Source: a virus (lineage: Duplodnaviria; Heunggongvirae; Uroviricota; Caudoviricetes). From it: 22,230 nt of DNA. The stretch covers positions 1 through 22,230 of the IMG/VR virus record IMGVR_UViG_2713896776_000007; one strand, 5' to 3'. Every line of letters starts with the position of its first letter. The stretch's first letter is position 1. Below are positions 3,853-21,885 of this stretch, piece after piece. The notes beneath the pieces were generated by a model. It was not told the DNA's origin and searched no databases. It was given only the letters and a program-made list of their open reading frames with translations. Both the position numbers and the translations under genes were made by a program.

Positions 3853-4515
3853 TTACTCACCAACAGCCCACCAACTGTAATTCATCGATACCGTGTCGCT
3901 GGTTGATGACGTTCTGTAAGCAGAATTAAAACCGGTTAACGTTGGGTCTTCTGCCGTCATCACGAACCCTCGCCCAGCGCCTAAAGGCGCACCGCCATCA
4001 CCAGAATGAGTAAGCATGGCGCAGTCCGCTTTTTTGGGGAAAGGGATGCTGAATGTAATTCTCATTGTTTGCGTCGATAATGTCGGCGTAACCGCACCTC
4101 GACCATATTGCAGGATTTTACCGTTGGGTAATTTCATCCATCCATCACCACTGGCAAAAGAAGCCATGTCCGGTATCTGATTTTCCCCTGTCCCCACATC
4201 CCGTTTTGCCGCTTCTCCCAAACCAAGGTTTTCGAGAGCCGTTTTCACCGTGCCGTCCGATTTGATATCGCCAAACGGATTCTTGCGGCTTAACAGCAGC
4301 GCGCGAAGTGCGGTAAGCAACTGGTCATGCCTCCCCTTCTCCAGGCTGGTACCGGATGCCTCCACCACGCTGCAAAGCTCCTCCTGCAACATGTCAAAGT
4401 AGTCATCATCCAGATCGGTGGCAGGTGTGCCGGTCTGGGGGTTACCACGGGTAAAACCGTTCTTACCCGCGCCGAACTTATCCTTCTGCGCGGTTTTCGT
4501 GTCTATACGATGCAT
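3853..4515 (-). CDS. tail fibre protein in the currently expressed configuration (constant N-terminus plus variable C-terminus)
   Basis: The N-terminus ([46 protein letters not shown]) is the conserved prophage tail-fibre N-terminal domain. ENLGLGE (aa 95-101) is encoded by the crossover site. The C-terminus has the GENQIPDM...[10 protein letters not shown] motif. Confidence 0.85.
4213..4238. repeat. 26-bp Din-family crossover site, right
   Basis: The site is ttctcccaaaccAAggttttcgagag. It is inverted relative to 2310-2335 and has the same AA core dinucleotide. Confidence 0.85.
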
Positions 4516-12257: not shown

Positions 12258-13753
12258 TATGCGGACTCCTCTGAATACTGAAGACGGAACTGGTTAACCA
12301 CGGCAAAGACACGCAACTGGTTAACATAGTCAGGCGGGAACAGCGTGTTCAGGCGGTTCGGATCGCTGGCATCACGCTCCACAACTAGGTACTGCTTAAA
12401 CAGTGCGTAGTTTTCCACGATCCCCGCACGCTCAAGCTGACGGTAGGTTGCCAGCAGTTCCCCTTTGATCACCGCCGGGGTGACAATCGCCTGACCGGGA
12501 CCAAAGCGGGTACCGTCACTGGCAAGCTTGTGACGCCCGTACTTACTGGTAATGACGGATTTCAGTTTGCGCAGTACATACGCGCTGGTATGCAGGGTCT
12601 CACTGTCTAGGTAGCTGTTATCCGCAACCCCGTAAGCGTTTTTCCTGTACGTGGTGACATCACGCTGAATGCGCAGTACCCCGCTTTCGACATACGCCGT
12701 TGCCACGCCATGAGACAGCAGGGTCTGTTGTTCGGTCATCGTGAACCGTTTCCCCTTCGGCGCAGGCAGCATACCCACCAGCTCACCGGTCTGCGTGGGA
12801 CGTGCCGGATCGTTGCGAATAAACACCGCTGCGCGGGCGGTACGGCTTGCCGCCAGTTCGTCGGCAGGCGTCTGGGTCTCTTTTTCGTACCCCGCCAGGG
12901 TAATGTGCTGCTGGTTAAACTGGTCACCTGCGGTCACCAGTTCTGACAGCGTGCCGATCTTTGCCGTATACACATGACCATACAGCTGACGCGCATAGCT
13001 CCAGCGACCGCTGGTATCGTTCATCTCGGTCACCAGCGTGTTAACGGAGGCCGTGTCGTTGAACGGCAGGCCGATATAATCAAACGGCTCATCCGCCATT
13101 GCAGCCACCGCGCCGGTGAGAACCGGAGCACCCGTTCCGGCGGTACCCGTCGCCACGGCAATCTGTACGCCCGCTGGCAGCACTTCGCCCCCACCAAAGC
13201 CGTAGTAATTGAGGCTGACAGGAATTTCATTCCCGCAAAGCCCCTTATGACGCGCGGTCAGTGTGACCACGCCTGCCGAAGATGAAGCCGTAAACGGCAG
13301 GGCCGGAACGGCATTGATGGCATCTTTGATACTGCTGGCAATCGTCGTGACGTTATCGCCGTTGGTCACCGGAGCCTGCACGCGGGTACGTCCCACATAG
13401 ACATTCACCGTGCCGGTTTCGGTTGCCGCCCCGGTCACCGTCAGCGTAACCGTTGCCGCCGCGCCTGTGGATTCAGGAACGGCAATCACATACAGCTCAC
13501 CAAACGGGTCGGTCTGGCGATAAGCCTCGACCATACGCGCCAGCTGACTTCCCGCACCACAAATCTGGCGTGCATAGTCTGCCGACGGCATCAGTACCAG
13601 ACTGTTGGCAACAATCTCTGCACCGTTATTGGCATGACCAATCAGCAGCGATGCTCCGCTGTCCTGTGCAGTATTCGCCGCCGAGTTATCCATTTCCGCA
13701 TAAAACAACGGAACCAGCGTATTCGACGGAATGGTGTTAAAGCTTATCGTCAT
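12257..13753 (-). CDS. contractile tail sheath protein (Mu L / gp39-like)
   Basis: It is 498 aa. Its size, position and sequence character match Mu-type sheath proteins. Confidence 0.85.
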   Translation of the reverse strand: MTISFNTIPSNTLVPLFYAEMDNSAANTAQDSGASLLIGHANNGAEIVANSLVLMPSADYARQICGAGSQLARMVEAYRQTDPFGELYVIAVPESTGAAATVTLTVTGAATETGTVNVYVGRTRVQAPVTNGDNVTTIASSIKDAINAVPALPFTASSSAGVVTLTARHKGLCGNEIPVSLNYYGFGGGEVLPAGVQIAVATGTAGTGAPVLTGAVAAMADEPFDYIGLPFNDTASVNTLVTEMNDTSGRWSYARQLYGHVYTAKIGTLSELVTAGDQFNQQHITLAGYEKETQTPADELAASRTARAAVFIRNDPARPTQTGELVGMLPAPKGKRFTMTEQQTLLSHGVATAYVESGVLRIQRDVTTYRKNAYGVADNSYLDSETLHTSAYVLRKLKSVITSKYGRHKLASDGTRFGPGQAIVTPAVIKGELLATYRQLERAGIVENYALFKQYLVVERDASDPNRLNTLFPPDYVNQLRVFAVVNQFRLQYSEESA

Positions 13754-13907
13754 CGGTATTCACCTTTTTATTCACGCGCCGGATATCACCCGCTGCTTCA
13801 CGGCGCAGCCAGTAGTTGTTCTCGTCAACATTTCGCCCTTCGGCGGGCAAAAGGTCGCCGCGGGCAGGGTCAGGAACTGACCGCCCTTTAACAGGTTTCA
13901 CAAACAT
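13737..13907 (-). CDS. DUF2635-like small tail-module protein (Mu gp38 position), not in the ORF track
   Basis: My manual translation is MFVKPVKGRSVPDPARGDLLPAEGRNVDENNYWLRREAAGDIRRVNKKVNTDDDKL (56 aa). The pattern VKP..G..V.DP....LP.EG..V....YW.RR...GD is the DUF2635 signature as I recall it. It overlaps the sheath start by 17 nt. Confidence 0.65.
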   Translation of the reverse strand: MFVKPVKGRSVPDPARGDLLPAEGRNVDENNYWLRREAAGDIRRVNKKVNTDDDKL

Positions 13908-13915
13908 GAAGATTC

Positions 13916-14476
13916 TCAGGAAGGAAGGGTTATTTCGGTGTGATGTTCGATATCGCCGTCAGGCCCGTTACCGGGATCGAGATAATCAACATCAATCGCC
14001 AGCGTTCGCAGTTCATCCAGACTGTTCAGGTCATCCTGCTGGCGGGTATCGTCTTCAGTCAGCTCGCTGATGACCGAAAAATCGAACTGATAAATCAGCT
14101 CATGACGATTCAGATCCAGCAGCGTGCCGCCGTCATAGGTAATCGGGTTACCGCACGCCTCCGGGTTCCAGCCCAGCAGAGCCTTAAAGAGCATCTGCCG
14201 GACATCGTCCACCACATCATACGAGGCAAACTGACCGCGCTCATCACGCCCGTTACTCAGTATGACAACCACGGAGAAACCCTCTTTCAGCTCCTGCCAG
14301 TAGTCGGTCTGGCTTTTGTTTTCTCCCGGAGAATCATCACCCGGTACAACATATGCCGCCGGGAGTTTCAGCTTTCCGACCTCCGGCAGATTTTTGAACT
14401 GGGCCGCGCCTGCAACCCGGTTTTCAAAATACGGACAGCGGGCACGCAGTGCAGCAATAACAGGCGTCAGTTTCAT
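13916..14476 (-). CDS. Mu gp37-like tail completion/terminator-region protein (DUF1834-like)
   Basis: It is 186 aa and lies upstream of DUF2635 and the sheath gene, as in Mu-type tail clusters. The family assignment is from memory of the general sequence character only. Confidence 0.6.
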   Translation of the reverse strand: MKLTPVIAALRARCPYFENRVAGAAQFKNLPEVGKLKLPAAYVVPGDDSPGENKSQTDYWQELKEGFSVVVILSNGRDERGQFASYDVVDDVRQMLFKALLGWNPEACGNPITYDGGTLLDLNRHELIYQFDFSVISELTEDDTRQQDDLNSLDELRTLAIDVDYLDPGNGPDGDIEHHTEITLPS

Positions 14477-14568
14477 CTGTGTCGTCGCTCCGGCTTCAGT
14501 GATTTACGCAATTCCCGCGCCAGAAAATAGCGTGTCCAGCTGCGGTTCTTTTCAAGAGTTTCCACCAT
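14473..14568 (-). pseudogene. 31-codon ORF, possibly the 3' remnant of a head-tail joining gene
   Basis: The ORF reads MVETLEKNRSWTRYFLARELRKSLKPERRHR and has an ATGA stop/start overlap with the gp37-like gene. The same frame stays open without an ATG up to about 14680. This suggests a truncated upstream gene at a mosaic joint. Confidence 0.3.
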
Positions 14569-14704
14569 GAAGTTATTACGTGGAGCCAGTCGCCAGCCGC
14601 TGCCACCGGATGCACCTGATCCACCGCGCGATAAATAAGCCGCAATCCGTGAGATAAATGGACACGGTGCGGCTTTTCAGATACTGCAAAGGAATTACAA
14701 ATTA

Positions 14705-20924: not shown

Positions 20925-20944
20925 ACCGCTCAGCGCTGAGCGGT
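20925..20944 (+). terminator. palindromic hairpin after the 114-aa gene
   Basis: accgctcagcgctgagcggt is a perfect 20-bp palindrome 19 nt after the stop. The T-tract is poor (tctgtgg). Confidence 0.35.
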
Positions 20945-21157
20945 TCTGTGGCTCTAGATCTGCCAACGTTGGCAGATTTGCCAATACCGCATTTGATTGA
21001 TGGTATCGAATCGCAAATGTCCCAGCGCTGGGAATCATCCCCAAAGGCGCAGACATCTGCGCCTTTGAGAAGCACGGAACTAAAATCCGTTTCACTGTAT
21101 GACTGTATGGTATGAGGCTTTCAGATGCTTACTGAGGCTTAAATAAGCTAATGAAGT

Positions 21158-21186
21158 TTGCATCATCTGTTCCAAGTTAGTACACT
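21158..21186 (+). promoter_or_regulatory. putative sigma70 promoter of the antitoxin sRNA
   Basis: The elements are TTGCAT-17 nt-TACACT. The predicted start at about 21193-21194 coincides with the first base of the left inverted-repeat arm. Confidence 0.45.
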
Positions 21187-21193
21187 TATCCCT

Positions 21194-21226
21194 GTTAGTG
21201 GATGCGTGACGCGCTCTGGTTGAGGC
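21194..21226. repeat. left arm of a perfect 33-bp inverted repeat
   Basis: gttagtggatgcgtgacgcgctctggttgaggc is the exact reverse complement of 21444-21476. Confidence 0.95.
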
Positions 21227-21272
21227 TCATTACCTTGAACAGAGATTCATCACCTTAAGCACCCAAAGAAAA

Positions 21273-21302
21273 AAGCCTGACCTCACCAGTCGGGCTTTTT
21301 TT
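21273..21302 (+). terminator. rho-independent terminator
   Basis: The 9-bp stem is aagccugac / gucgggcuu with one G-U pair and a 7-nt loop. It is followed by a T7 run. An A6 run upstream could allow bidirectional use. Confidence 0.75.
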
Positions 21303-21324
21303 GTCCGTTATTTACTCCAGTCCT

Positions 21325-21352
21325 TTGAATACACTGCTGATGCCTTTATAAT
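21325..21352 (+). promoter_or_regulatory. strong sigma70-like promoter of the toxin mRNA
   Basis: The elements are TTGAAT-16 nt-TATAAT. The predicted start is at about G21359. Confidence 0.55.
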
Positions 21353-21443
21353 CACAGCGTTAGTGGGTGTCCCGTTCTGACACAACGCAGGCATGTGAAA
21401 CGTGTTCAAGCCCTGGCTGGATTACGGGTGGTGCCGCTCCAGT

Positions 21444-21476
21444 GCCTCAACCAGAGCGCGTCACGCATCCACTAAC
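21444..21476. repeat. right arm of the perfect 33-bp inverted repeat (predicted sRNA target in the toxin leader)
   Basis: gcctcaaccagagcgcgtcacgcatccactaac lies 73-105 nt upstream of the toxin ATG. Confidence 0.95.
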
Positions 21477-21548
21477 AATGCAACACCGTTAACCAGGCAG
21501 TGGAAGGGCTTTAATGGTGATGCCGCGCTCCTGTAGTGGAGCAAACGG

Positions 21549-21632
21549 ATGAAGGGATTTCTTCAAATCGCTGTCATCGCTCTTAAGGCAATTGTCGCCT
21601 TTATTGAGCTGATTCTGGCCTGCTTACCGTAA
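21549..21632 (+). CDS. 27-aa hydrophobic TisB/DinQ-like type I toxin candidate, not in the ORF track
   Basis: My manual translation is MKGFLQIAVIALKAIVAFIELILACLP. From memory, TisB is MNLVDIAILILKLIVAALQLLDAVLKYLK and DinQ is MIDKAIIVLGALIALLELIRFLLQLLN. GGAG lies 7 nt upstream of the ATG, and a strong hairpin follows the stop. Confidence 0.55.
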   Translation: MKGFLQIAVIALKAIVAFIELILACLP

Positions 21633-21651
21633 GCAACCGGGAAACGTAAGT

Positions 21652-21680
21652 AAGGCCACCGGCTCACCCCCGGTGGCCTT
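21652..21680 (+). terminator. hairpin terminator of the toxin mRNA
   Basis: It has a perfect 11-bp stem (aaggccaccgg / ccggtggcctt) and a 7-nt loop, 19 nt after the stop. The U-tract is weak. Confidence 0.55.
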
Positions 21681-21885
21681 TAACATTTTAAGTCTGCCTC
21701 GCCGCTCTACCGGCCATTCATTTTTGAAGCTGGCTGAGTGTTAAGGCTAAATTTAAGGTGGCACTGACGGCTTAAATTCCTGCGATATCCTGGCATGTCG
21801 TTATGATTAAAGCGCATTAGAAACAAATTTCATCGTTCTGATTAAACATGTTTACCTGACTATTCAAAGTAAGGTAAATCTCAAT

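Follow-up and report, generated by a model that had tools for sequence, protein, structure and literature searches.

DinQ/AgrB, encoded in the arsR-gor region of Escherichia coli K-12 (Weel-Sneve 2013; Kristiansen 2016, PMC5066626), has relatives that Kristiansen et al. named dql genes (PMC5066626). Among these, DqlB is toxic and is rescued by agrB, the pair acting as a plasmid addiction module (PMC12365149, PMC12317039); toxicity and its neutralisation by a small RNA (sRNA) have been shown for both DinQ and DqlB (PMC5066626, PMC12365149, PMC12317039). In T1TAdb, the antisense RNA (asRNA) lies 5' of the mRNA without overlapping it in the ShoB, TisB, Zor and DinQ families, and only pairs in the orientation expected of each family were searched (PMC8594479). 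Here, we analyzed a window of 22,230 nucleotides (positions 1 to 22,230 of the IMG/VR virus record IMGVR_UViG_2713896776_000007), which is part of the E. coli AW1.7 chromosome. Between 21158 and 21690 of this window, we observed a locus that is very probably, judging from its sequence, a type I toxin-antitoxin module of the dinQ/agrB (dinQ-like, dql) family with a tandem antitoxin gene. An earlier note on this DNA had proposed a TisB/DinQ-class type I module with a tandem sRNA, and this core proposal held in every computational test run. The same note did not know the arrangement as a described system: the tandem layout is indeed new, whereas the family is known and named (dql).

Organization of the locus

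The locus is built on an inverted repeat. A repeat search of the window gave two arms, 21193-21226 and 21444-21477, that are complementary at 34 of 34 positions and separated by 217 nt; by our own estimate, about 1e-14 perfect 34-mer inverted repeats within 300 nt are expected by chance in 22 kb. The repeat had been described before as 33/33 (21194-21226 / 21444-21476), which was correct as to exactness and not as to length. The left arm opens a putative sRNA gene with the following features:

21158..21186, + strand: sRNA promoter read from the sequence, with -35 TTGCAT at 21158-21163, a 17-nt spacer and -10 TACACT at 21181-21186
21193..21226, + strand: left arm, which forms the sRNA 5' end and is complementary to the leader of the toxin mRNA (34/34 against 21444-21477)
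21194..21303, + strand: putative AgrB-like antitoxin sRNA of about 110 nt, with a 5' targeting tail, a middle hairpin and a terminator, three-part like AgrB in its minimum free energy (MFE) fold
21269..21303, + strand: intrinsic terminator of the sRNA, with a 13-bp stem (21269-21281 / 21289-21301) and a T7 tail

The sRNA promoter, whose +1 was placed at 21193-21195, lies 165 bp upstream of the toxin promoter on the same strand. The predicted transcript begins with (U)GUUAG, from which the 34-nt targeting segment, the middle hairpin and the terminator follow, and its length of about 110 nt on recheck agrees with the RNA of about 109 nt predicted earlier from the left arm. The promoter hexamers are conserved in L010 with a variable spacer, and the same geometry recurs with other sequences in L008 (TTGCCA-17-TAAACT) and L024 (TTGTGG-17-TAAACT); the K-12 agrB promoter has the same layout (TTGCAA-17-TAGTAT). 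With an A-run and a T-run on opposite sides of its stem, the sRNA terminator looks bidirectional. A natural sRNA variant that lacks 20 nt of the middle hairpin and keeps the targeting tail and the terminator was observed in L069 (433-982).

Downstream of this unit, a second set of features describes the toxin gene and its leader:

21325..21352, + strand: toxin promoter TTGAAT-16-TATAAT, 10 of 12 matches in the promoter scan, without a LexA box
21359..21690, + strand: predicted dinQ-like toxin mRNA of about 332 nt, made of a 190-nt 5' untranslated region (UTR), the open reading frame (ORF), a conserved 3' block and a terminator
21359..21370, + strand: mRNA 5' end GUUAGUGGGUGU, which nearly repeats the 5' end of the sRNA; in the MFE fold of the full-length transcript, it is predicted to pair with 21465-21476
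21444..21477, + strand: right arm, lying in the 5' UTR (+86..+119) as the predicted target of the sRNA and holding switch element 2 (GAGCGCG, 21454-21460)
21524..21542, + strand: switch elements 3 and 4, with element 3 CGCGCUC at 21524-21530 and GCUCC (21527-21531) pairing with GGAGC (21538-21542)
21549..21632, + strand: toxin ORF of 27 aa, MKGFLQIAVIALKAIVAFIELILACLP, with the Shine-Dalgarno (SD) sequence GGAG at 21538-21541
21640..21689, + strand: 3' block GGAAACGTAAGTAAGG (21640-21655), common to dinQ, dqlB and the candidate, and terminator hairpin (21652-21680) with the tail TAACATTTT

Both promoters and both terminators were thus present at the positions first reported, as were the SD-preceded 27-codon ORF and the 11-bp GC hairpin (21652-21680). 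An RNA made from the left arm would be antisense to the mRNA leader, as had been proposed, with a target located 72-105 nt 5' of the ATG. The reported absence of a LexA box was borne out as well: no CTG-N10-CAG was found near the sRNA promoter or the toxin promoter, in a search in which the dinQ control was positive with CTGTATGATTATCCAG. LexA regulation was rejected, since neither promoter has a box.

Homology to dinQ and agrB

To place the locus in a family, we built an nhmmer profile from 70 distinct DinQ/DqlB mRNAs, leaving out the candidate's clade. This profile matched the window at 21390-21684 with E=3.4e-27, over profile positions 36-349 of 350. A second match (4005-4069, + strand, E=0.006, 7.9 bits), in the lysis-gene region of the prophage, is probably spurious. 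When 21320-21690 was aligned directly with the transcript of K-12 dinQ, identical colinear blocks were seen, namely GTTAG at +1, TACGGGTGGTGCCG, CTAACAATG, CAGGCAGTGGA, TGGAGnAAACGGnTGA (SD and start codon), GGAAACGTAAnTAAGG after the stop codon, and the terminator; these blocks are also common to four plasmid dqlB loci. The predicted toxin +1 (21359) falls on the G of GTTAG, a motif that also marks the mapped dinQ +1, and numbering from this G reproduces the published dinQ coordinates (SD at 184-187, AgrB site at 88-119; PMC5066626). In the same numbering the candidate has its target at +86..+119 and its SD at +180..+183, the right arm coinciding in position with the AgrB site of dinQ (G88-A119; PMC5066626). 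By contrast, blastn in its 'distant' mode did not reach dinQ or dqlB from this locus, and none of roughly 3,000 dqlB plasmids was found with the locus as query; the homology was seen only by direct alignment and by the profile. On these alignments, the locus is homologous to dinQ/agrB and not merely alike in layout.

The sRNA gave a graded picture in Rfam. At gathering thresholds, no family matched within the locus. At relaxed thresholds, AgrB (RF02891) aligned with the candidate sRNA over the full model length on the + strand (19.2 bits, E=2), against 26 bits for a sister sRNA described below and 47.8 bits for a plasmid agrB control. The terminator loop CCUCACCAG is identical to the loop of plasmid agrBs, and this loop and the 3' part of the sRNA align with plasmid and K-12 agrB. 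These comparisons indicate that the sRNA is homologous to AgrB. At the same relaxed thresholds, OrzO-P gave a weak full-length match to the sRNA region (E=0.21) and IstR gave none.

The candidate and DinQ/AgrB have in common the mRNA blocks (GTTAG at +1, ACGGGTGGTGCCG, CTAACAAT, CAGGCAG, AAACGGRTGA, GGAAACGTAAnTAAGG and the terminator), a 27-aa peptide with A..I.L.A..A..ELI, an sRNA 5' end with 34-nt complementarity to about +88..+119, an SD in a 3:4 hairpin with an alternative 2:3 pairing, and a three-part sRNA. They differ in that the candidate sRNA lies on the same strand (inverted repeat) instead of divergently (direct repeat) and is about 28 nt longer, in that the LexA box and the agrA paralogue are lacking, in targeting sequences that are predicted to be orthogonal, and in their site, a prophage or mini-element instead of the core chromosome. 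With the DqlB/AgrB pairs of pOXA-48 and pOXA-484, the candidate has in common membership of the dinQ-like family, carriage on mobile elements, constitutive-type promoters and a complementarity of about 35 nt between sRNA and 5' UTR (PMC12365149, PMC12317039). DqlB, with 31-32 aa (MINLLIIVLRAV...), has a 4-residue insertion relative to the candidate peptide. The agrB gene beside it is divergent, with the repeat in direct orientation (IncX3, IncX1, IncI/K, pESI, pOXA-48), and, unlike the candidate sRNA, passes the Rfam threshold.

More distant systems resemble the candidate in fewer respects. Like TisB/IstR-1, it would combine a small hydrophobic peptide of the depolarising type and of similar length with an sRNA whose 5' end pairs about 100 nt 5' of the start codon and, by analogy, with an inactive primary transcript. 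Unlike it, the candidate has no detectable nucleotide homology to that system and no match to TisB_toxin, TIGR04459 or IstR; tisB is LexA-controlled and istR is divergent, neither of which applies here. Upstream sRNAs that pair in a long 5' UTR are also found in ZorO/OrzO and ShoB/OhsC, which differ by divergent sRNA genes, a complementarity of 18-19 nt and other peptides; sub-threshold full-length matches to OrzO-P were obtained with both the candidate and the sister sRNAs, and to ohsC with the sister sRNA alone. Loci with a ShoB-like peptide MMDARHLIKQVIEIIIAVLQLILLFL (L021, L022 and L023) matched the dinQ-family pattern AAACGGRTGA...GGAAACGTAAnTAAGG, which suggests that shoB/ohsC and dinQ/agrB mRNAs share ancestry at the nucleotide level.

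The predicted toxin peptide

Among 14 distinct ORF sequences, we observed 11 variable sites, 8 of them at third and none at second codon positions, and the only changes in the peptide are I15L and V16I. This pattern indicates that the peptide is under purifying selection. In tests against composition-preserving shuffles (23±4), the peptide scored 44 with K-12 TisB (p=6e-4) and 41 with K-12 DinQ (p~8e-4), with an ELI motif common to the latter pair. None of the curated models recognized it: NCBIfam toxin_DinQ (NF041472) and DinQ_rel/DqlB (NF041473) gave nothing at E<=10, and TisB_toxin (PF13939 / TIGR04459) did not match it under conditions in which the TisB control reached 37-70 bits. Since the peptide models fail while the nucleotide homology holds, the candidate is neither DinQ nor DqlB proper. 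A tblastn search with the peptide, which the earlier note had advised, found a single Citrobacter plasmid and nothing in phages. Presumably, and by analogy, this 27-residue hydrophobic peptide is an inner-membrane toxin like DinQ and DqlB, and type I toxicity and repression would follow the same pattern at this locus.

A sister subfamily was observed in L024 (1041-1590, - strand) and L143, with the toxin MKAILDIAIIALKALTALLELIRAIWF, a same-strand sRNA of about 85 nt and a perfect complementarity of 18 nt. By our own count, its peptide is 56% identical to the candidate, and it matched NCBIfam toxin_DinQ with 25.4 bits (E=1.3e-5), under the 30-bit cut-off. Overall, the candidate belongs to a peptide/sRNA subfamily that is new in the sense of being missed by the curated DinQ, DqlB and TisB models, 14 published Dql peptides (e.g., 'dqlA') not having been part of the comparison.

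Conservation of the sRNA-mRNA pairing

We then compared the pairing across an alignment of 16 distinct tandem-type modules. The 34-pair sRNA-mRNA helix was paired in 95.6% of cells, the sRNA terminator stem and the SD hairpin in 100%, and the pairing of the mRNA 5' end with the target in 98.9% with zero double changes; the mRNA terminator stem has 2 compensatory positions. For the whole 59-pair structure (arms, two terminators and SD hairpin), slid controls paired in 33-42% of cells and none of 500 shuffles reached the observed values. Within the 34-pair helix, 15 pairs are invariant, 11 changed on one side, 4 are compensatory (21203/21467, 21205/21465, 21217/21453 and 21223/21447) and 4 depart only through unpaired cells. 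Nearly all of the one-sided changes are G·U-compatible on the + strand RNA. These results indicate that the sRNA-mRNA pairing is under selection. The perfection of the repeat, as first described, holds in some strains, others having one mismatch or some wobbles: among the nine variants first compared, four have perfect arms, namely AW1.7, Intestinirhabdus L005, L014 and L013 (two wobbles allowed), the last two being IMG/VR contigs. In the sister clade, perfect pairing is limited to 18 nt.

The same data bear on a reading at the DNA level, in which the repeat would bound a mobile unit similar to a miniature inverted-repeat transposable element (MITE) or an invertible promoter switch. Two perfect 34-bp arms at a distance of 217 bp are indeed long enough for occasional RecA-mediated inversion. 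However, one-sided arm changes that are overwhelmingly G·U-compatible on the + strand form an RNA-specific pattern, with exceptions in the mismatch intermediates at 21217/21453, at arm position 1, which is likely outside the transcript, and in the sister clade beyond its 18-nt seed. In addition, the dinQ/dqlB homology runs through and past the arms, all 16 variants of the module have the same orientation, no recombinase gene adjoins the locus within the element that carries it, and there is one copy per carrier genome (9 carriers in 5,426 E. coli genomes), save for an unlocated extra match in AW1.7. Of the 9 carrier genomes, 7 gave a single place for the segment between the arms, so that the multicopy MITE-like unit against which the earlier note had warned was not observed. 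The MITE reading was rejected on copy number and on the homology running through the arms, and the invertible switch on the colinearity of the 16 variants and the lack of a recombinase; we regard a DNA-level explanation as extremely improbable. Separately, any BLAST query containing 21228-21442 gave one extra place in the two AW1.7 assemblies and in none of the other seven carrier genomes.

Another reading keeps the RNA but dispenses with a separate trans-acting sRNA: both arms would act within one long transcript from the upstream promoter, in which a 34-bp stem would be cleaved or would block translation. A read-through transcript (21194-21690) is predicted to form this stem in cis over its full length, and the tandem layout permits such transcripts. 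Against this stand the conserved strong terminator between the arms (13-bp stem, T7 tail), followed by an independent 10/12 promoter, the homology of the unit to free-standing AgrB sRNAs, and the sister clade, where the complementarity of only 18 nt is typical of a trans seed. A purely cis-acting repeat is thus very unlikely in our view, and a trans-acting, AgrB-like sRNA is the reading that we retain.

Duplex prediction on the two RNAs, also advised in the earlier note, gave -73.6 kcal/mol for the candidate sRNA on its own mRNA against -31.8 on dinQ mRNA; for agrB, the values were -62.7 kcal/mol on dinQ mRNA and -25.6 on the candidate mRNA. The predicted energies are cognate-specific and would make the module orthogonal to a resident dinQ/agrB. 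The sister sRNA is predicted to bind the candidate mRNA moderately (-39 kcal/mol), and the sister mRNA would be bound alike by the candidate sRNA (-46) and by its own sRNA (-45.5 kcal/mol), making cross-talk between the sister and candidate pairs possible in this model.

Orientation of the antitoxin gene

At the dinQ-type loci, the antitoxin gene was described in the earlier note as divergent with direct repeats, and we verified this layout, with a divergent agrB, for K-12 dinQ/agrA/agrB, for the dqlB loci of IncX3, IncX1, pESI and IncK plasmids, and for pOXA-48. We took a census of orientation over viral and metagenome contigs with a family-specific pattern, which detects only loci that keep the pattern. 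Among the matches listed, 90 loci are divergent, all of the DinQ, DqlB or ShoB-like type; 17 are tandem, 15 of the MKGF type and 2 of the sister type; 15 are unclear, all of the DinQ or DqlB type; and 16 had too little upstream sequence and were not classified. The candidate's clade is thus tandem in 17 of 17 cases among the matches listed, where no tandem DinQ, DqlB or ShoB-like locus was found.

RalR/RalA was considered as a same-strand precedent and rejected, its genes being in opposite orientation. In the literature examined, outside the figures and supplements that list the published dql loci, no same-strand antitoxin encoded in trans was described. The clade is new in its inverted antitoxin gene, in its phage carriage and in the absence of SOS control.

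Distribution and carrier element

The locus is present in 9 of 5,426 complete E. coli genomes, and further carriers are one Citrobacter IncFIC plasmid, Intestinirhabdus alba and several IMG/VR and metagenome contigs. No GenBank phage record carries it, and a search of species-representative genomes with the Gp27 neighbor as a handle gave one useful locus. The Prokaryotic Genome Annotation Pipeline (PGAP) annotates nothing under the locus and leaves a gap of 980 bp. As for the carrier, the earlier note had placed the module in a prophage regulatory island; we found instead a Mu-type element of 7.75 kb inside a lambdoid capsid gene:

14617 to about 140 bp beyond the window end: discrete, non-autonomous Mu-type element of 7,754 bp, equal to L001 13518-21271

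The module lies near one end of this element. The ends read TGATCC...TAATCA (TG...CA), with imperfect 42-bp terminal inverted repeats that carry two (C)GTGAGATAA-like sites, and the 6-bp target duplications are AAGACA here and CCACGG in Intestinirhabdus. The insertion site differs in each host. Here, it is the major capsid gene of a lambdoid (Qin-like) prophage, whose parts lie at about 13687-14616 and downstream of the element; since the insertion splits this gene, that prophage is defective for head assembly. The element contains no transposase or integrase. Its genes encode a tape-measure-like protein, a fragment-like head-protease homologue, Mor, DUF3102, an Arc/HicB-like repressor and an N-terminal Gp27-like protein. 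Copies from E. coli, Citrobacter and Intestinirhabdus are 84-92% identical, and the IMG/VR contig L013 (7,799 nt) is exactly one element. The element ends are 79% identical to those of Escherichia phage Phi06_2974 B and resemble those of an unannotated E. coli phage, in which the homologous end is similar to the right end of Mu in carrying gin-type invertase, tail-fiber and baseplate genes. From this comparison, the element looks like a satellite or a mini-Mu lineage.

Outside the element, modules of either subclade lie directly 3' of the phage baseplate gene phrog_2258 (L008 1-560, L010 8757-9306 and L024), near the prophage end and in a moron-like position. These positions indicate that the clade is phage-associated, and the module may plausibly have a role in retention or conflict.

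Just 5' of the sRNA promoter, we also observed an array of perfect loop-less palindromes (20925-20944, 20958-20977, about 21019-21034 and 21042-21067). Three of them have a central CA(G/A)CG(C/T)TG, and all three CARCGYTG sites of the 22-kb window fall within this array (20925-21067). Related elements have 5-7 comparable palindromes each, with differing sequences.

Proposed control of the toxin

In the model that we favor, the toxin promoter would give a 332-nt mRNA for the 27-residue peptide and the upstream same-strand promoter an AgrB-like sRNA of about 110 nt, the first 34 nt of which would be complementary to leader positions +86..+119 of the mRNA. As long as the mRNA is full-length, its SD would be locked in the 3:4 hairpin and the target covered by the 5' end of the same molecule. 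If the locus behaves like dinQ, processing at the 5' end would then release element 2 (GAGCGCG), whose pairing with element 3 (CGCGCUC) would open the SD. The sRNA, once on its target, would recapture element 2 and the SD hairpin would close again, while the long sRNA-mRNA duplex would be a likely RNase III substrate. As for the sequence elements themselves, the GCUCC/GGAGC hairpin sequesters the SD in every fold obtained by MFE and partition folding. Compared with dinQ, the 2:3 pairing has two compensatory changes (GAGUGAG/CUCACUC to GAGCGCG/CGCGCUC), and the 2:3 complementarity is kept in both tandem subclades.

The earlier note had instead favored control of the TisB/IstR-1 type, in which the target about 100 nt 5' of the start codon would be a ribosome standby site that the sRNA occupies. 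To our knowledge, this standby mechanism has been shown for tisB only. The geometry fits such control (target 72-105 nt 5' of the ATG), as does the peptide, which is as close to TisB as to DinQ in the shuffle tests (44 and 41 vs 23±4), and standby sites are needed where the SD is sequestered (PMC7708055), as it is here in every fold. However, the mRNA is homologous to dinQ and not detectably to tisB, the dinQ switch elements 2, 3 and 4 are kept with compensatory changes relative to dinQ, and neither the TisB models nor the IstR RNA family matched. Standby-site control thus appears unlikely here, and by homology the dinQ four-element switch with RNase III is likelier, the two mechanisms not being mutually exclusive.

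Several observations weigh against the assignment to the dinQ/agrB family or against parts of this model. The sRNA falls short of membership of the Rfam AgrB family (19.2 bits vs a gathering score of 40), and scans of the 27-aa peptide against Pfam and NCBIfam gave no match. The sRNA promoter is weak, with 7 of 12 consensus matches, and the promoter scan did not list it. Covariation events are few, most of the 16 loci in the comparison being close relatives, and the pair 21217/21453 is mismatched without compensation as U·U in CX21 and the Citrobacter plasmid and as U·C in VREC0864. MFE and partition folding gave no open-SD conformer for any 5' truncation of the mRNA; support for the switch therefore comes from homology and from the conservation of the 2:3 complementarity. 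Expression and toxicity at this locus are predictions from the sequence and from relatives. Finally, a plasmid is a more obvious beneficiary of addiction than an integrated element.

With these points taken into account, a dinQ/agrB-type module carried on prophages and on a Mu-type mini-element would most likely serve for retention (addiction) or conflict. The tandem layout would add a further property, since read-through from the sRNA promoter would give a transcript that silences itself via the 34-bp stem. One may go further and regard the same-strand layout as a distinct control logic that defines a phage-borne DinQ-like clade, with a self-silencing 34-bp read-through hairpin, antitoxin transcription that runs into and maybe occludes the toxin promoter, and a role in phage-phage or satellite-helper conflict (e.g., abortive infection or retention of the Mu-type mini-element) instead of SOS persistence or plasmid addiction. 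We consider this broader proposal speculative and rather improbable.

Implications for the DinQ/AgrB family

Overall, the DinQ/AgrB family would have a phage-associated branch that is wholly missed by the NCBIfam, Pfam and Rfam models. The orientation of the antitoxin gene appears not to be fixed, all other enterobacterial trans-encoded type I antitoxins checked being divergent, and the tandem branch would escape searches in which the asRNA is taken to be divergent, the T1TAdb procedure (PMC8594479) among them. The natural compensatory variants, together with the predicted orthogonality to dinQ/agrB, offer ready-made specificity mutants. Finally, the placement of the module on a 7.75-kb Mu-type element and at prophage ends raises the question of a role in element retention or in conflict between phages.

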